DNA from: Candidatus Saccharimonadota bacterium
GTDB lineage: Bacteria > Patescibacteriota > Gracilibacteria > BD1-5 > UBA6164
DNA: 32,000 nt
NCBI GenBank assembly: GCA_963677765.1
Contig: OY782392.1
Coordinates: 930,001-962,000 of the forward strand
Direction of reading: 5' to 3'
Shown: piece after piece, positions 4,726 through 19,837 of the stretch
How the letters are laid out: the number at the start of each line of letters is the position of its first letter
Numbering within the stretch: position 1 is the stretch's first letter
Notes under the pieces: model-generated
The model's database searches: none
Seen by the model: the letters and a program-made list of their open reading frames with translations, nothing else
Told to the model about the DNA's origin: nothing
Position numbers and translations under genes: made by a program

Positions 4726-4856
4726 AACTTTTTAATATTAGTTCTATTTATTTATATTTTAACATAAAAAATTAAAATATTAAAATTTTTTGTTTAGATA
4801 ATTTGATTTTTTTCTATATTTCTTATTATATATTAGATATTATTAATACTTTTATT

Positions 4857-5741
4857 ATGAATAATAAGGCATTCACTCTTGTTGAATTGATAGTTGTTGT
4901 CACTATTTTGGCTATTTTAGGTACTATTTGATTTATATCTTTTACTTGATATACAAGCGAAGCTAGAGATTCTTCTAGAGTATCGGATATGGCTACAATC
5001 AAAAAAGCTATAGAAATATATGAAATAAATAAAAATAAATTACCAGAAATAAGTGATCCAACACCTGTTTACTATAATTGAGAAGTTGTTTTTTATCAAT
5101 GAACTTTTTGATCTAAAACTATAGCTAGTTTAGAGTGACAAATAGGTAATTTCCCAGTAGATCCTCTTACATGAGAACATTATTCTTTTTCTAAAACAAA
5201 TAATTCTAGAGAATATGAATTAGGATGATTTTTTGAAAATGAGAACTATATTTCATTTGTTGAAACAGCAAATGCAGCTTATAAGACAAAAGCAATATTA
5301 AAATGAACATACAATGGTAGGGCTTTATCTATTATAAATTGAACTAACTTACAACTAATAGCTAGTCCTTCTATAACAGTAAATGATTTATCAAGTGATA
5401 ATTTTTCTGATATAGTAGCTTGAAATAAATTTGTTTATGATAAAAAATATAACTTGCCATCTAATTTTTCATCTACAAGTTATGATTTAGCATGATCATG
5501 AGATAAAGTATTTGTTAATCAATCTAGTATAGAATTATACAATTGAGAATTTGATGATTTAAAAAATGATGCTAATAAAATTATATTTTTGGAAAATATG
5601 ATTCAAGCATATGATTCTACAGATTTACAAGATAGTCTTGTTATCTCGTCTTTATTAAGACAAGATACTACTAATACAAGCGAATCATTAAAATATATAA
5701 ATACTTTTTTAGGTCAAAATATATCTGATAAATTAAACTAG
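4857..5741 (+). CDS. type IV pilin / PulG-like pseudopilin with prepilin N-terminal cleavage-methylation motif, 294 aa
   Basis: The N-terminus MNNKAFTLVELIVVVTILAILGTIGFISFTGYTSEARDSSRVSDMATIKKAIEIY is the canonical class III signal (FTLxE plus a hydrophobic helix) with a PulG-like ArD..R..D.....ai..Y continuation. ATG 4857, TAG 5739-5741. Confidence 0.8.
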
Positions 5742-8486: not shown

Positions 8487-8940
8487 GGGGCTATTTATGG
8501 TTTCTATCGGGAGAATCGTCACGGTTATATGCTATCAGGGAGATGTTTGTGACTTCCTTTAATCAATCATAAACAACAATAAATGCAAAAAATAGAATTG
8601 CAGGTGGTTTAGCTGCATTTAAAAATGCTTTAAACCCATCTTTCGTTGCTGCATAATTAGACAGTACACGAAGTAGCCTTCGCTAAGTCGATGAGTGCCG
8701 ATTGGCCTGCTACACAGTTTATAAAAATCCCCGCTTTTGGAGTTTTATAAACTTATAAATAAAAGCTTTTCATAAAACGGTTTTGATCTAGTCTTGTTTT
8801 TTGAAAATACCAATAGATTGGATTATATTATGAGTTTTTTGTTTGTTTTATTATTCATAATATTACTAAAATAAACTATGATAGTAGATGTGTTTCTCTG
8901 GCCTCCCGAGACATGGGTTCAAATCCCATTAGCTCCACCA
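8487..8940 (+). ncRNA. ssrA: tmRNA (transfer-messenger RNA), about 454 nt
   Basis: The 5' GGGGCTA pairs with the 3' TAGCTCC-ACCA, giving an acceptor stem with a G3:U pair (the alanine identity element). The T-arm is ATGGG-TTCAAAT-CCCAT at 8913-8929 and the sequence ends in CCA. An internal tag ORF ends ..VAA-TAA. Confidence 0.9.
8585..8656 (+). other. tmRNA tag reading frame (AKNRIAGGLAAFKNALNPSFVAA-stop if resumption is at GCA 8585)
   Basis: The frame gca aaa aat aga att gca ggt ggt tta gct gca ttt aaa aat gct tta aac cca tct ttc gtt gct gca taa has a hydrophobic ..FVAA end typical of degradation tags. The resume codon is not certain; GCA 8600 would give an 18-aa tag. Confidence 0.55.
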
Positions 8941-8991: not shown

Positions 8992-9150
8992 AACTAATAT
9001 AAAATATTTCGACCGAAATCGCATGTTTTAAGGAAAAATAAGATATTTGTATAAAAAATACTGATTCTAAAAATAAAAATGGCTTAAAATATGGAGTTAG
9101 ACCGAGTTCAAATCCTGAAAGGTGTAAAACTATTTTTTAATCACAAAAAT

Positions 9151-10743
9151 ATGTCAGAAGAACAAAAAAGACAACTTGAAAAAAAGCTATGGGATATAGC
9201 TAATGAATTGAGAGGTAAAATGACTGCCGACCAATTCAAAGATTATATTTTATGATTTATTTTTTATAAATATTTATCTGAAAAAATACAACTAAAAGCA
9301 GATAGATTATTAAAAGATTGATGAGTAAATAAAAAATACAATGAACTAAATGAAAAAACTGAATCTGATATAATAGAAGCTATAAAAGATGAAGCTATTG
9401 AAGATTTAGGTTATTTTTTATTGCCTTCTGAACTATTTTGTGAAATGGCTAAAAAATGAAATTCATCTAAAGAAAACTCATGAGATGAAGAAAATATTGT
9501 AAGTAATTTTATTTTAGATGATTTACAAAAAATATTAAGAAATATTGAAGCTTCAACGATGTGAACAGAATCAGAAGATGATTTTGATAATTTATTTGAA
9601 GATTTAGATTTAACTTCTTCAAAACTATGAAATACATCAGAACAAAAAAATAAACTTGTTTCAAAGATATTATGACATCTTCAAGGTATTGATTTTTGAT
9701 TAGAAACAAATGAATCAGATATTTTATGAGATGCTTATGAATATTTAATAGGTCAATTTGCAAGTGGTGCATGAGCGAAAGCATGAGAGTTTTACACACC
9801 TCAACAAGTATCAACTATATTAGCAAAACTTGTAACAAGTTGAAAAAATCAATTAAAATCAGTTTATGACCCTACTTGTGGTTCATGAAGTTTACTTTTA
9901 AGAGTTGCTAAACAAGTAAAACAAGTTTGAGAATTTTTCTGACAAGAATTAAATAGAACAACTTACAATCTTGCAAGAATGAATATGATAATGCATGATG
10001 TAAATTATAGAAAATTTGATATTAAACAAGAAGATACTCTTGAACATCCTCAACATAAAGAAAAAAGGTTTGAAGCTATAGTTGCAAATCCTCCATTTTC
10101 TGCTAAATGGTCAGCAAATCAAACTTTTTTAACTGATGATAGATTTAGTCAATATGGTAAATTAGCACCTAGTTCTAAAGCAGATTTTGCTTTTATTCAA
10201 CATATGATTCATCATTTAGATGATAATGGTATAATGGCTGTTGTTGTTCCTCATGGTGTTTTATTTAGATGAGCTTCTGAATGACACATAAGAAGATATT
10301 TAATAGAAGATAGAAACTATTTAGATGCTGTTATATGATTACCAGCTAATATTTTTTATGGTACTTCAATACCTACTTGTATTTTAGTATTTAAAAAATG
10401 TAGAAAAGCAGATGAAGATATTTTATTTATAGATGCTAGTAATGATTTTGAAAAATGAAGAAATCAAAATAAATTAAGAAAAGAAGATATAGATTTAATA
10501 ATTAATACTTTTAGAGATAGAAAAATTTTAGAAAAATATTCTTATACTGCTAATTTAGATGAAATAAAAGAAAATGACTATAATCTAAATATATCTAGAT
10601 ATGTTGATACTTTTGAAGATGAAGAAGAAATTGATTTAGAACTAGTTACAGAAAAACTTCAAGAAATAGAAAAAAAAAGCAAAGAATTTGATGATAAAAT
10701 TAAAAAATATTGTGATGAGTTAGGAATTAAAAGTCCATTTTAA
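9151..10743 (+). CDS. hsdM: type I restriction-modification system, N6-adenine DNA methyltransferase subunit, 530 aa
   Basis: HsdM-type N-terminus MSEEQKRQLEKKLWDIANELRGKMTADQFKDYILGFIFYKYLSE, the GEFYTPQQV block, motif I YDPTCGSGSLLL and motif IV NPPF at 10087-10098. ATG 9151, TAA 10741-10743. Confidence 0.95.
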
Positions 10744-10759
10744 TTAAATATCAAAAAAT

Positions 10760-11974
10760 ATGACTACAAGTTTAAAAATACCAAAATTAAGATTTAAAGA
10801 GTTTTCATGAGAATGGAAAAATAAAAATATATGAGAAATATTTGATAGAATAATAGAAAAAAACAAAGAGAATAATTTAAACTCTTTAACTATCTCAGCT
10901 CAAATGTGATTAGTTAATCAAGAAAATTATTTTAATAAATTAGTTTCATCAAATGATTTAACATGATACTATTTGTTAAAAAAATGAGATTTTGCTTATA
11001 ATAAAAGTTATTCAAAATGATATCCACTATGAGCAATTAAAAGATTAAATATTTATGATAAATGAGTTGTATCTACTCTTTATATATGTTTTAGAATTAA
11101 AAAATGATATTCTAATAATTTTTTTGAACAATATTTTAATAGTCAAAAACAAAATCATTCTATACATAAAATTGCTCAAGAATGAGCTAGAAATCATGGT
11201 TTATTAAATATAGCTGTCTGAGATTTTTTTAATATAAAAATTTATTTTCCAGAAATTTTAGAACAAGAAAAAATATCAGATTTTTTATATCTAGTTGATA
11301 AAAAAATTAATTATATAAATGATAAAAAAGAAAATTTAGAAAATTATAAAAAATGAATTATTCAAAGAATATTTAAACAAGAAATAAAATTTAAAGATGA
11401 AAATTGAAATAATTTTTGAGAATGGAAAGAGACAACTTTAAATAAAGTTTTTAAAGAAAGAAAAGTGTATTCCTCAAAATGATTAGATTTACCTCATATT
11501 TCTTTAACTACTCAGTGAGTAGTTCCAAAAAGTGAGAGATACGAAAGAGATTATTTAGTTATGTGAGATGATAAACAATATAAAGTAACTAGATTATGAG
11601 ATATTTGTTATAATCCTGCTAATTTAAAATTTTGAGTTATTACAAGAAACAAGCTTTGAGATTGAATCTTTTCTCCTATATATGTAACTTTTGAAGTTAT
11701 CTGAGAAAATGATGTAAATTTTATAGAATACTTTGTTACAAGAAAGGATTTTATAAATAGAGCTAGAAAATATGAAGAGTGAACAGTTTATGAAAGAATG
11801 GCTGTTAAACCTAGTGATTTTCTTAAATTAGAAGTTGAATTACCAACTCAACCAGAACAAAAGAAAATAGCAAAATTTTTATGAAATATTGATAAAAAAA
11901 TTGAGAAAACAAAAGAAGAATTAGTTGAGTTAGAAAACTTTAAAAAGTGATTATTACAAAATATGTTTATTTAA
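10760..11974 (+). CDS. hsdS: type I restriction-modification system, specificity subunit, 404 aa
   Basis: N-terminus ..PKLRFKEFSGEWK. Two variable target-recognition halves are each followed by the conserved helical repeat (LEQEKISDFLYLVDKKI..LENYKKGIIQRIF and PEQKKIAKFLGNIDKKI..LENFKKGLLQNMF). Starts 16 nt after hsdM. Confidence 0.9.
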
Positions 11975-11990
11975 TAGTAATTAATTCATT

Positions 11991-12929
11991 ATGTTGATAA
12001 AAACTAGAAAAATTATTGATTTGAATGTTTCGAAACATGATGGTTTTGAAGGTTATTATTTATTGATTGAAAAAGTTCAAAAAAATGTAAACATTAATCC
12101 TGATATTTCAATTGAAGCTTGTAAATCTTTAATTGAATGAATCTCTAAATTTATACTTACTAAAGTTGATAATACTTATAAACCTGAAAAAATAGAAGAT
12201 TTATGAAAATTAGTTAAAAGAATGTTTTTAAATCTTTGAACTTATTCATGAGTAGAAATTGAAGATATTTTAGTTAGTAGATTAGTTTCAGTAATTATAA
12301 GAGTTTGAGAAATTAGAAATTCTAGATGAGATGTATCACATGGAAAAATTTATCCAAAAGATGAAGTAAGTGATATAAATTTATCAAATTTTATAGCTTC
12401 CATAACAGATGAATTATTATTTTATGTATTAAATATATTTTTCAATCTCGACTTTAGTTCTGATGAATGAATTAAATATGAAGATAATGAGGATTTTAAC
12501 GATTATTTAGATGAAGAAAATGATTTTATTTTTATATGAAAAAAGAAATATAGTGAAGCTCTATTTGAATTAGAACCAGAAACTTATGTTACAGAATTAA
12601 CAGATTTTAAATTATGAGATGAAGAAAATATTGAAGAAATTGAAGAAGTAATTGAAGCAAAAGAAACTAAACAAGAAGAATGTAAAATAGAACCTAAAAA
12701 AGATAAAGTTAAAAAAATAAACAAGAAAAAATTTAATAAATTCTGTTTAGATAAAAATATTGATTCTTGAAAATTAGAAGAGTTATTAAATTGATATATT
12801 TTTACATGAATAGATCCTACAAATGATGATATAGCATTAGTTTTAAACTATAAACCTGAATTTTCAAAAAGAAGAGAAATTTTAAAGGAAATAAAAGAAA
12901 ATTTAGATAATTTAATAATTGAGGAATAA
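11991..12929 (+). CDS. R-M-embedded protein X, 312 aa: Abi_C-like (abortive-infection C-terminal domain-like) N-terminal region, acidic linker and an HsdR-C-terminus-like tail
   Basis: ATG 11991, TAA 12927-12929, starting 16 nt after hsdS. RVGEIRNSRGDVSHGK resembles the RN...HG core of Pfam Abi_C as I remember it. The last ~65 aa align without gaps to the last ~70 aa of HsdR in this operon (27/64 identical, manual count). Confidence 0.5.
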
Positions 12930-12951: not shown

Positions 12952-14127
12952 ATGAAAAATAAGACACATATCTACAGAGATAGTTTAAATAATGACTATA
13001 AATTAAATTATTCTGAAATAATAAAAGAACTTATAAAAAAATGAATTTTAGATAAATCATTATTAAATAATAATTGAATTCCAGATTTTAAAGAGATTTT
13101 TATTTTTTTAGATTCAAATCGTGATAAATTTGTTGATAAAAGTATTAATCTAAATATAGAATTAGATGAAAAAAGATTACAAGATAATTATATATCATCT
13201 AGATTTCAAGAAAGATTTAATATAAGGCAATTACATTTAGATTCTGTTAATACAGATGAAATATTTGAAATATTAAAAAAAATATATCTATTAAATTATA
13301 ATATTGAACAAGCTTTATTTAGAGCTTTTTCAGATAGAAGAATGATATGATTTTGAAAAGAGTTTTTTGAGATAGTTTTTGATGATAATGAATTAATGGA
13401 TTTTTATTTATTAATTAAAAAAAATATTTTATCTAGACAATTTGATGAAAAAATTATATATAAAATAATTAATAGATATGATTTTAAAAGAGTTTTACAA
13501 AAATTAGAATCAATATTTACAAGTAAAAAAATCCAGATTCATATTGATACTAAATATTTTGTTTCAAAATTTTTAGAAAAAATAGATGTTTTTTCAGAAT
13601 ATACTTCAAAAGAAGACGATGAAAATATTGCGTTTATTGATAAGTTTAAATTAACTAGAGATAAAAAAATTGAATTAGCAGAAAAATATTATAATTTATG
13701 ATTAAAGTTATTGTCTTGAGTTATCATAATTAATTTATTATTATATTTTTTAAATATATGAAATAAAGAGTCATTTGAAGATTTTATACTATGATTCTTA
13801 TGAAATTGAATATTTTTATTTATTGTAGAATTAATTCTTTTTACAATTGGAATATATTGTTTTAAGTTATATAATTTTTACTCAAAATTAGTTGAATTAT
13901 ATGATTCTCATATTTGATTAATTGAATCAGATTTACACTATAAAAATGATGAACAACTAATAAATTGAGGTATTGATTCAGTATTTACATTAAGAAAAGA
14001 AAATACACAAAAAATACATAATTTACCAGATAAGGCATTAAATTTATTAAATTTAAAAACAGATATTAATACTCATTCAGACTTTAGTATTAAAATAATA
14101 GAAAAATTAATAGATAAAATTAATTAA
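12952..14127 (+). CDS. R-M-embedded protein Y, 391 aa: soluble N-terminal domain, two transmembrane helices, C-terminal tail; no recognisable domain
   Basis: ATG 12952, TAA 14125-14127, ending 5 nt before the hsdR ATG. Hydrophobic segments LGLKLLSGVIIINLLLYFLNIG and FILGFLGNGIFLFIVELILFTIGIYCF are encoded at about 13696-13866. The track shows only an internal 101-aa piece. Confidence 0.65.
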
Positions 14128-14132
14128 ATTAT

Positions 14133-16949
14133 ATGAATACAATCCAATCAGAAGCACAATTAGAAAATAATCTTATAAAACAATTACAAGGTCTAGAATA
14201 TATTCCTGTAACTATTAAAGATGAAAAAGAGCTTTTAAATAATCTTAAGAATCAACTTGAAATACATAATTTCAAAACTCTAAATTGAAAAACTTTATCA
14301 GATAAAGAATTTGATAGAGTTTTAAATCATCTAAATAAATGAAATGTATTTGAAAGAGCTAAAATTTTAAGAGATAAGATGAGCTTAGAACTTGATAATT
14401 GAGATAAAGTTTGGATTGAGTTTATTAATATGGATAATTGGTGTCAAAATGAGTTTCAAGTAACAAATCAAATAACTATAGAATGAACTTATAAAAATCG
14501 TTATGATGTAACTTTACTAATAAATTGACTTCCATTAGTTCAGATAGAATTAAAAAGAAGATGATTAGAGTTAAAAGAAGCTTTTAATCAAACTAATAGG
14601 TATCAAAGACATAGTTTTTGAAGTGGTGCTTGATTATTTCAATATATTCAATTATTTATTATAAGTAATTGAGTAAATACAAAATATTATGCTAACAATA
14701 GAAAACAAAGTTTTAAACAAACTTTTTATTGGTCTGATGTAAAAAATAAAAATATCACAAAATTAGAAGAGTTTACAAAGGTATTTTTAGAGCCTTGTAA
14801 TATATCTAAAATGATAACTAGATATATTGTTTTAAATGAAACTGATAAAATATTAATGGTTTTAAGACCATATCAATATTTTGCTGTTGAAGCTATTATT
14901 GATAGAGTAAAGAACTCAACTAAAAATGGTTATATTTGGCATACTACTTGAAGCTGAAAAACTCTTACATCTTTTAAAACTTCTCAAATATTAACAAGAA
15001 TCCCAGAAGTTAAAAAAGTAGTTTTTGTAGTAGATAGAAAAGATTTAGATTATCAAACTACTAAAGAGTTTAATAGTTTTTCAAAATGAAGTATTGATTG
15101 AACTGATAATACAACTCAATTAGTAAAACAATTTGAAGATAGTAACACAAAATTAATAGTAACTACTATTCAAAAACTAAATACTGCTATTTCAAAAGAG
15201 AGATATTTAAAGAAAATGGAAGCTTTAGCAAATGAAAAAGTTGTGTTTATTTTTGATGAATGTCATAGAAGTCAATTTTGAGATACTCATGATAGAATTA
15301 AAAAGTTTTTTGTTAATAATCAAATGTTTGGTTTTACATGAACTCCAATTTTTGCAGAAAATCATAATAATAAAAGAACTACCAAAGATTTGTTTGAAGA
15401 ACAATTACATAGTTATGTTATAACTGATGCTATTAAAGATGAAAATGTTTTAAGGTTTTCAGTTGAATATATAGGTAAATATAAAGAAAAATCAAACACT
15501 AATTTAGATATACAAGTTGAAGAAATCGATACTAAAGAGCTTTTAGAATCTCCAGACAGATTAGATAAAATAACTGATTATATTATTGCTAATCATGATA
15601 CTAAAACTCATCATAAATCATTTACATGAATGTTTTGTGTAAGTTCTGTTGAAACTTTAATAAAGTATTATGAATTATTTAAAAAGAAAAATCATAATTT
15701 AAAAATTGCTACTATATTTTCATATTGAACTAATGAAGATGATAAAGATGCTGACTGAATAATTAATGATATACAAATTGAAGTAAAAGATAATGAAGTT
15801 AATAAACATACTAGAGAAAAATTAGATGAATTTATAGATGACTATAATGGTATATTTTGAACTAAATTTTCTACTAAAGACACTCAAAGTTTTTATAATT
15901 ATTACAACGATATAGCAAAAAAAGTAAAAGAAAGACAAATAGATATTTTGCTTGTTGTAAATATGTTTTTGACTTGATTTGATTCTAAAACTTTAAATAC
16001 TTTATATGTAGATAAGAATTTAAAATATCACTGATTAATCCAAGCTTTTTCAAGAACAAACAGAATATTAAACGAACAAAAATCACAATGAAATATTGTT
16101 TGTTTTAGAAATCTTAAAAATGATGTTGATAAAGCTATTGCCTTATTTTCAAATCCAGAAGCTAAAGAAGTAATTTTAATGGAAAGTTTTGAAACTTATA
16201 TTAAATATTTTAATGAAGCTTTAGAAAAACTTATTTTAATAGCTCCTAGTGTTGAATCTGTTGATTGACTTATAAGTGAAGAGGAACAATTTGAATTTGT
16301 AAAAGCATTTAGAGATTTAATAAGAATTAAAAATATACTTGAAACTTTTGTTGATTTTGATTTTAATAAACTTGATATAGATGCTCAAACTTTTGAAGAT
16401 TATAAATCAAAGTATCTTGATATTTATGATGAAGTTAGAAAAAGAAGTGAAAAAGAGAAAGTTTCTATTTTAGATGATGTAGATTTCGAACTAGAGCTTA
16501 TAAAGAGAGATGAGATAAATATAGATTATATATTAGCTTTACTTGCTAATTTACATGATTCAGATTCTGAACATAAAGAAAAGATGAAAAAATCTATTTT
16601 AGATTTAGTAGCATGAGAAGTAACACTTAGAAGTAAAAGAGAATTAATAGAAAAGTTTATAGAAGAAAATTTATGAAATATCAAAGATACTTCAAATATT
16701 TGAAGTGAATTTGATAAATTCATGATATTACATAAATCAAAAGAATTTGAAAAATTATGTCTTGACGAAAATATAGATTCATCAAAGTTTACTAAACTTA
16801 TAAATAATTATTTATATACTGAAAAAATGCCTTTAAAAGAGGAAATAGCAAATACATTAAATTATAAACCAAAATTACTTGAAAGAAAAAGTGTAATTGA
16901 TAGAATCAAAGATAAAATGCAAGAATTCATAAGTGTATTTGAGAGTTAA
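14133..16949 (+). CDS. hsdR: type I restriction-modification system, restriction/translocase subunit, 938 aa
   Basis: PD-(D/E)xK nuclease block [21 protein letters not shown]. Helicase motif I WHTTGSGKTLT (both Gly are TGA, at 14949 and 14955), motif [12 protein letters not shown], motif [30 protein letters not shown] and motif [14 protein letters not shown] 14133, TAA 16947-16949. Confidence 0.95.
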
Positions 16950-16978: not shown

Positions 16979-17011
16979 AAAGTAGTGAGAAATTTTTCTC
17001 ACTACTTTTTT
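16979..17011 (+). terminator. intrinsic terminator of the R-M operon
   Basis: agtagtgaga-aatttt-tctcactact stem-loop followed by TTTTTT, 30 nt after the hsdR stop. Confidence 0.8.
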
Positions 17012-19426: not shown

Positions 19427-19837
19427 ATGCAAAATATAGAAAACTGATGGTATAGAGTAAGTGTAAAAGCTCTTATTTATAATAATAAATGAGAATTTTT
19501 ATTATGCAAAGAAAGTAATTGAACATGGGATTTACCATGAGGGTGATTAGACCATTGAGAAAATCCTATATCTTGTTTAAAAAGGGAATTATATGAGGAG
19601 ATGTGATTAGTTGCAAAAAATATAGATAAAATACCTTTATATTTTATAACTACTAACAAACCTACAAGCAAAACAAGACCTTGGATTGCAAATATTTGTT
19701 ATAAAACAGAAGTAGAAAATCTGGATTTTACTAAATCTGATGAATGTGTTGAAATTTGATTTTTTGATATTGAAAGTGCTAAAAAATTAGATTTACTTGT
19801 TAATGTAGTTGAGTTGATAAAAGAGATGGAAAAATAA
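19427..19837 (+). CDS. Nudix hydrolase, 136 aa
   Basis: Complete Nudix box GGGLDHGENPISCLKRELYEEMGL (G-x5-E-x7-REUxEExGU). Four of its Gly codons are TGA. Confidence 0.88.

Follow-up and report, generated by a model that had tools for sequence, protein, structure and literature searches.

The type I restriction-modification (R-M) operon described here raises the question of why a protein other than the restriction subunit, HsdR, should end in a copy of the HsdR C-terminus, and what such a copy might do. PrrC exemplifies the HEPN toxins encoded in R-M loci, whose presumed role is to watch over the R-M system and to fire once phages have disabled it, and we found, in the literature searched, no explanation for how such toxins are physically coupled to the R-M enzyme. 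The protein in question, here called X, is encoded in a 32,000-nt stretch of DNA (hereafter, the window), which was analyzed together with related loci from other genomes and metagenomes.

Reading the operon depends on the genetic code. The G+C content of the window is approximately 22%, and under the standard bacterial code (table 11), which we rejected, every gene is broken into fragments, while long open reading frames (ORFs) are restored once TGA is taken as a sense codon. Table 4, in which TGA encodes Trp, was also rejected, because Trp would then occupy conserved Gly positions. Specifically, TGA is codon 113 of X (12327-12329), which corresponds to a Gly that is at least 90% conserved in an RGD[IV]SH motif, and it also encodes Gly residues in the GGG box of a Nudix sequence at 19427-19837. 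Because TGA falls at the expected Gly in both the X motif and the Nudix box, we adopted genetic code 25 (the SR1/Gracilibacteria type, TGA=Gly), which the sequence supports. The public-database copy of X (P0001) carries Trp at the TGA sites and is identical to X once these are read as Gly. Under this code, five closely spaced + strand genes, hsdM, hsdS, X, Y, and hsdR, follow one another in that order as a unit, separated by 16, 16 (hsdS to X), 22, and 5 nt. The features of the unit are as follows.

9091..10743, + strand: hsdM, type I methyltransferase subunit, 550 aa (Pfam N6_Mtase, 1.4e-111, and HsdM_N, 1.9e-15; code 25)
10760..11974, + strand: hsdS, specificity subunit, 404 aa (Pfam Methylase_S, two target-recognition stretches, 3e-10)
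11991..12929, + strand: X, 312 aa, predicted HEPN domain followed by a linker and an HsdR-like tail
12952..14127, + strand: Y, orphan, 391 aa
14133..16949, + strand: hsdR, EcoR124-type (type IC-like) restriction/motor subunit, 938 aa (by its Pfam domains)
16173..16934, + strand: EcoR124_C domain, HsdR residues 681-934 (PF12008, 4.7e-64, profile positions 1-258 of 260)
16740..16949, + strand: HsdR partner tail, residues 870-938 plus stop (BLASTP, tail HMM)
16979..17008, no strand assigned: strong hairpin with a 13-bp stem followed by a T run, terminator-like, after hsdR and closing the five-gene unit

No comparable + strand terminator-like site was found within the five-gene operon. The R-M system reads as EcoR124-like, and thereby as type IC-like, on the domain set of HsdR (HSDR_N PF04313, 4.6e-40; SWI2_SNF2 PF18766, 6e-63; T1R_D3-like PF22679, 1.2e-58; and EcoR124_C) and the presence of HsdM and HsdS in the same unit, the type IC family itself being classically defined by a genetic test, namely, subunit complementation with known type IC enzymes. 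Directly upstream of the operon lies a tmRNA gene (8487-8940, + strand; tag peptide AFKNALNPSFVAA). Genes for tmRNA are common sites of island insertion; insertion of an island at this one was considered and rejected, as no att-like repeat of the tmRNA 3' end was found downstream. Elsewhere in the window, an ORF at 4803-5741 (+ strand) has a prepilin-like N-terminus, FTLVELIVVVTILAILG, which suggests a type IV pilin or pseudopilin.

A preliminary description of the window had proposed that X ends in a copy of the HsdR C-terminal tail, that the two segments align without gaps at 27 of 64 identical positions, and that both are the extreme C-termini of their proteins (312 aa for X and 938 aa for HsdR). 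These claims held throughout. BLASTP of full-length X against full-length HsdR returned a single significant pair, X 246-309 against HsdR 870-933, which is gapless, with 27/64 identities and 42/64 positives, the same count and coordinates as proposed (X codon 246 starts at 12726 and HsdR codon 870 at 16740). The search was run with compositional matrix adjustment, a correction that the description had named as the proper check on its claim, and gave E=1e-13. Further, the relationship was recovered by reciprocal profiles. A hidden Markov model (HMM) built from X-type tails only was run on the first 40 loci, the window among them; its matches, at E values between roughly 1e-8 and 1e-23, were to EcoR124-type HsdR tails, with no other ORF matched. 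The converse HMM, built from HsdR C-terminal domains only and run on a subset of the loci, matched all long-form X proteins (E 1e-8 to 4e-17) and, hsdR relics excepted, no other non-HsdR ORF in the loci scanned; the window X was matched at E=7.6e-10 over positions 182-261 of 270, which is a partial match. The full-length Pfam model PF12008 returned no match for X at E<=0.1 and only a weak match for one homologue (P0033). Because BLASTP and the two independent profile tests agree, a generic or low-complexity helix was ruled out for the tail.

At the DNA level, the two tails are 61% identical, with an identity of 0.45 at third codon positions against 0.42 expected by chance. Recent gene conversion of the tail was rejected on this ground, and, since third codon positions match at near the chance level while protein similarity persists, the duplication is old, with the similarity kept at the protein level. 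Separately, an AT-rich stretch of 30-35 nt that closes the X tail (12881-12915; it encodes ...EIKENLDNL) resembles stretches in hsdM (10554-10588) and hsdS (11316-11345) at 80-87% identity, a likeness that is probably due to chance in a genome of 22% G+C.

The remainder of X turned out to be recognizable as well, and its parts can be delimited as follows.

11991..12605, + strand: X residues 1-205, AbiJ/Abi_C-family HEPN domain by prediction, all-helical (PF14355 in homologues; AlphaFold (AF2) pLDDT mostly 80-92)
12324..12341, + strand: RGDVSH, the HEPN Rx4H putative RNase active-site motif, X residues 112-117, with Gly113 encoded by TGA
12606..12725, + strand: linker, X residues 206-245, acidic and lysine-rich, flexible (AF2 pLDDT <50 for 216-236)
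12726..12929, + strand: tail, X residues 246-312 plus stop, a compact helical mini-domain (BLASTP, HsdR-only HMM, AF2 pLDDT ~96)

Among 62 homologues of X retrieved with phmmer, 58, P0001 included, carry the precomputed Pfam assignment Abi_C (PF14355), the score of X alone against that model being sub-threshold (14.2 bits, with a cut-off of 24; E=0.05). The RGD[IV]SH form of the Rx4H motif occurs in about 60 of the 62, and, over 33 aligned sequences, R109, D114, and H117 are invariant, and R112 and G113 are conserved at 90% or more. On this family assignment and motif conservation, we classify X as an AbiJ/Abi_C-type HEPN protein and a putative RNase, which replaces the earlier view of X as an unclassified protein foreign to R-M systems, given that this family is known inside R-M operons. 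Neither PADLOC nor NCBIfam gave a match for X or Y. The AF2 model of X, made from the database copy and a 33-sequence alignment, comprises a confident helical domain from residue 1 to approximately 205, a disordered acidic linker (216-236, pLDDT <50), and an autonomous tail domain (241-312, pLDDT about 96). A search of the full model against the PDB with Foldseek found nothing significant, the weak resemblances, all at E>1, being to HepT (6M6W), the sacsin HEPN domain (3O10), and AbiV (9BJ7). With its HEPN domain folded, its linker disordered, and its tail a self-contained unit in the model, X has the architecture of a tethered adaptor.

Within HsdR, it is the EcoR124_C domain (PF12008, HsdR 681-934) to which the tail belongs, corresponding to its last ~65-80 residues. 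By sequence, the C-terminal 230 residues of HsdR match PDB entry 3EVY and residues 829-991 of the EcoR124I HsdR. A model of the HsdR C-terminal fragment that contains the tail has its secondary-structure elements arranged in the order seen in the X tail, and its three best PDB neighbours are the EcoR124I HsdR chains 7BST_B, 5J3N_A (the isolated C-terminal domain), and 6H2J_B, with probabilities of 0.95-1.0; this is a fragment-level structural superposition rather than a residue-level mapping, as the tail profile gave only chance matches against PDB sequences and did not reach the EcoR124I HsdR. The HsdR C-terminal domain is reported to be required for assembly of the holoenzyme (R2M2S1). In terms of the tail profile, X tails keep the positions that determine the fold (the hydrophobic core, Y24, P31, D34, P44, and L46), and they do not keep E10, E48, E54, R55, and K59, which are invariant in HsdR tails; in the window X, four of the HsdR-invariant charged positions are charge-reversed. 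Charge complementarity between the X tail and the HsdR tail was considered and rejected, since the charge changes are inconsistent within the window clade. Hence, the X tail has the fold of its HsdR counterpart, but the contact surface may differ, and, because the HsdR-invariant charged residues are lost, the interface is perhaps not identical.

Database look-ups combined with genome and metagenome scans yielded 108 distinct loci that encode X or a relative; in the metagenome scan, X alone as a query returned no matches, and a family-alignment query succeeded. In these loci, the HEPN gene adjoins genes of a type I R-M system and is typically flanked by hsdS and hsdR, with hsdR downstream on the same strand in 99, hsdM or hsdS upstream in 91, and a median gap between the X gene and hsdR of 1 nt. 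The tail is present in 31 of the 108 and absent from the remaining 77, which occupy the same operon position; therefore, embedding does not need it and, presumably, neither does basic function. It is an extra on X rather than what ties these proteins to R-M operons. Short forms are ~210 aa in length and end in a conserved YSKALF...Y motif, while long forms, at 300-408 aa, continue into a variable linker and then the tail, which could be aligned in all 23 long forms examined. Wherever a tail-bearing X was found with a complete HsdR, the operon was of the EcoR124_C type, that is, type IC (26/26), and the six operons with another type of HsdR (a YPPE-type C-terminus) all have a tail-less X. Similarity between X and the HsdR of the same locus was significant in 11 of the 12 tail-bearing cases tested. 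The shared module usually spans 60-75 aa but in some lineages extends to ~135-190 aa; such a long HsdR-derived part, covering most of the C-terminal domain, occurs in L056 (X 192-337 against HsdR 754-943), L017, L022, and L078. One short-form member, annotated as an “abortive infection protein,” lies in an hsdM-hsdS-abi-hsdR operon on the Acinetobacter baumannii plasmid pDETAB4 (L050; NZ_CP072527.1, 93809-100232), and the family member occurs on clinical and environmental plasmids of that species. This plasmid operon offers a tractable system for the family, and tractable long-form homologues occur in Flavobacterium cerinum (CP101751, L001) and Tenacibaculum (L022).

The history of the tail seems to involve more than one event. 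In trees built from the HEPN domain only, the tail-bearing proteins were monophyletic in 0 of 200 bootstraps, and the window clade (the window, P0002, and L040) grouped with tail-less forms in 77.5% of replicates; Fitch parsimony over 153 sequences called for no fewer than 4 trait changes, the median over bootstraps being 6. The window X tail has 41% identity with the tail of its own HsdR, at most 33% with other HsdR tails, and 16-28% with X tails from beyond its clade, and derived residues seen nowhere else (e.g., an L[NS]YKP motif) are common to the X and HsdR tails of the window and L040. Across 21 non-redundant pairs, the similarity of cognate X and HsdR tails exceeds that of non-cognate ones (permutation p=3e-5), and it does so without the window clade as well (p=0.006), the strong outliers being the window, L040, and L078. 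This cognate excess is not predicted by a single ancient fusion followed by drift and points to repeated capture, conversion by the resident hsdR, or co-evolution against a shared partner. From these comparisons, the tail has probably been captured, or has co-evolved, more than once. Among close relatives, conservation is 0.79/0.58 for the HEPN domain, 0.67/0.46 for the tail, and 0.45/0.38 for the linker, with synonymous sites saturated, which shows purifying selection on the tail. A search of a 5.8-billion-protein set with the tail profile returned only fragments of 51-121 aa and was uninformative on other fusion partners. Three loci hold the tail in isolation.

L047, 7001-7267: tail-only short ORF, beside another R-M operon
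L048, 7001-7243: tail-only short ORF, between an hsdR of the T1RH-like_C type and a PrrC/RloC-like AAA_13 gene
L049, 2980-3222: tail-only short ORF, beside another R-M operon

These ORFs, of 80-88 aa, consist of a type IC HsdR tail alone, with boundaries that resemble those of the X tail, and the exact sequence of the one in L048 (P0072) occurs on 19 contigs. Since the homology extends upstream of the start codon, they appear to be remnants of hsdR genes that were replaced; stand-alone tail genes, for which P0072 and P0096 had been candidates, were rejected, as their genomic context is that of relic hsdR 3' ends. Such relics are a plausible source of the X tail module.

What, then, might the tail do for X? 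Our preferred reading, to which we give a probability of about one-half, is that X is a latent, PrrC-like HEPN RNase effector that is tethered to the R-M complex through mimicry of the HsdR docking domain. In this protein, a flexible linker would join the putative toxin domain to a small domain that appears to be copied from the assembly domain of the HsdR of its own operon. The tail would occupy, or compete for, the HsdR docking site on the HsdM2-HsdS core or, alternatively, would bind the R1M2S1 complex, a form that type IC enzymes populate. This would keep X in physical contact with the R-M complex, which would silence it; upon disturbance of that complex by a phage (e.g., through anti-restriction proteins or altered assembly), X would be released or rearranged, whereupon the HEPN domain would cleave RNA and abort the infection. 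The binding to M2S, the latency, the trigger, and the RNA target are all steps that we infer, and the most likely contact of X is the HsdR docking site of the M2S core. The recurrence of the tail, the selection on it, and its confinement to type IC operons fit a role in docking or competition. The preliminary description had likewise suggested that X docks on the methyltransferase core in place of, or alongside, HsdR, or competes with it; the tail homology, the placement in EcoR124_C, the structural match, and the type IC confinement speak for that interpretation, and the loss of the charged HsdR-invariant residues speaks against carrying it over unchanged. A more far-reaching proposal, which we regard as tentative and rather doubtful, is that mimicry of the HsdR assembly domain is a convergently evolved adaptor that plugs abortive-infection toxins into the type IC HsdR docking site, possibly the weakly occupied second one, such that the toxin reads the assembly state of the enzyme.

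Other readings share part of this evidence. X could mainly be a regulator of restriction, acting in restriction alleviation or in establishment control, that, by imitating the docking domain of HsdR, competes with it for the methyltransferase core and so lowers restriction, with the HEPN domain secondary or non-catalytic. It would draw on the same tail homology and type IC confinement as the tethered effector, and the assembly equilibria through which type IC restriction alleviation works do depend on the HsdR C-terminal region. However, the near-invariance of the HEPN Rx4H motif speaks for catalysis, the tail is missing from most of the family, and X does not keep the HsdR-invariant surface residues, as one would expect of a competitor, so that we consider this reading unlikely. 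The tail might instead be a DNA-binding or DNA-proximity module that puts the HEPN domain on DNA or on stalled R-M complexes independently of HsdM and HsdS, in line with the published description of the HsdR C-terminal domain as DNA-binding. Nevertheless, occurrence in type IC operons only and co-variation with the cognate HsdR are easier to explain through a lineage-specific protein partner, and the window tail is not notably basic; we hold this version to be quite unlikely.

The same co-variation is equally compatible with a tail that binds HsdR itself or another partner, through contact with the HsdR C-terminal domain or X-X oligomerization, rather than the M2S site. Such a contact would accommodate the systematic differences between X tails and HsdR at the HsdR-invariant polar positions, including the four charge reversals in the window X, although the inconsistency of the charge changes even within the window clade counts against it, as does the fact that no self-association of the HsdR C-terminal domain was found in the literature searched, and we judge it improbable. 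Finally, the relics in L047 and L048, which lie beside R-M operons and have about the same boundaries, demonstrate that raw material exists for an accidental fusion, in which the leftover 3' end of a replaced hsdR was joined in frame to the HEPN gene and has no function. That the tail is conserved above the level of the linker despite saturated synonymous sites, remains alignable across 23 long forms, is modeled with a pLDDT of ~96, and recurs in at least three lineages makes a non-functional relic very improbable indeed.

The gene between X and hsdR seems to follow its own path. Y has two predicted transmembrane helices (~249-270 and ~277-307, by hydropathy), belongs to no family in Pfam, PADLOC, or NCBIfam, and has only two homologues, both distant. 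X and Y had been described as a module, a view that we abandoned together with that of an obligate pair: in L043, a relative of Y directly follows hsdS without X and is itself followed by a Schlafen/AlbA_2 and HATPase_c_4 gene. Because its relative follows hsdS without X, we take Y to be an independent cargo gene, and it may be an uncharacterized, R-M-embedded defence cargo.

Returning to the tethered effector, the window X suggests a way in which back-up defence proteins could be held physically to the R-M enzyme that they guard. The X family turns the coupling of toxins to R-M systems into a concrete, directly testable docking hypothesis, and the HsdR-like tail provides a sequence signature with which R-M-coupled effectors may be found. 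If true, the proposal of a convergent adaptor would supply the first structural logic for wiring R-M guardians to the R-M system.

A close parallel is PrrC, an HEPN anticodon nuclease whose gene lies within the type IC hsd locus of EcoprrI; it is held latent by the R-M enzyme and is activated when the phage T4 protein Stp inhibits EcoprrI. X is likewise a protein with an HEPN motif that is encoded between hsdS and hsdR of a type IC locus. However, PrrC has an N-terminal ABC-ATPase (AAA_13) regulatory domain and an HEPN domain of a different family, and X has neither (no ATPase domain was found in it with Pfam or in the AF2 model), X instead carrying the C-terminal copy of the HsdR tail. By this comparison, X is not a member of the PrrC/RloC family and would only work like one. 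We found no account, in the literature searched, of how PrrC contacts EcoprrI.

With respect to family, X is closer to the solo AbiJ proteins. Anantharaman et al. 2013 (PMC3710099) recognized AbiJ as an HEPN family and reported that AbiJ proteins without N-terminal domains are commoner in R-M operons, which is the same family and the same genomic association as found here, and the 77 tail-less forms match these proteins; HsdR is mentioned 0 times in that paper. According to a 2026 review, no mechanistic information exists for AbiJ. Thus, HEPN genes in R-M operons have been known since 2013, and the fusion to an HsdR tail appears to be new, as we found no description, in the literature searched, of an HsdR-derived C-terminal module, its type IC confinement, or its repeated acquisition.

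Embedded cargo in type I R-M loci has been described in TgvAB of Vibrio cholerae VPI-2, the Rlo genes of Campylobacter jejuni, and the embedded candidates of Payne, all of which, like X, are inserted among the hsd genes of a type I locus; Y and the Schlafen/AlbA_2 gene of L043 are further cargo of this kind, as TgvAB is. TgvAB also protects without the R-M genes, though less so against several phages, and, unlike X, has no domain in common with a subunit of its host R-M system in the published account. [quoted passage not shown] Whereas in the EcoR124I HsdR this module belongs to the same chain as the nuclease and motor domains, in X it is detached from them and linked, through a disordered linker, to an HEPN domain.
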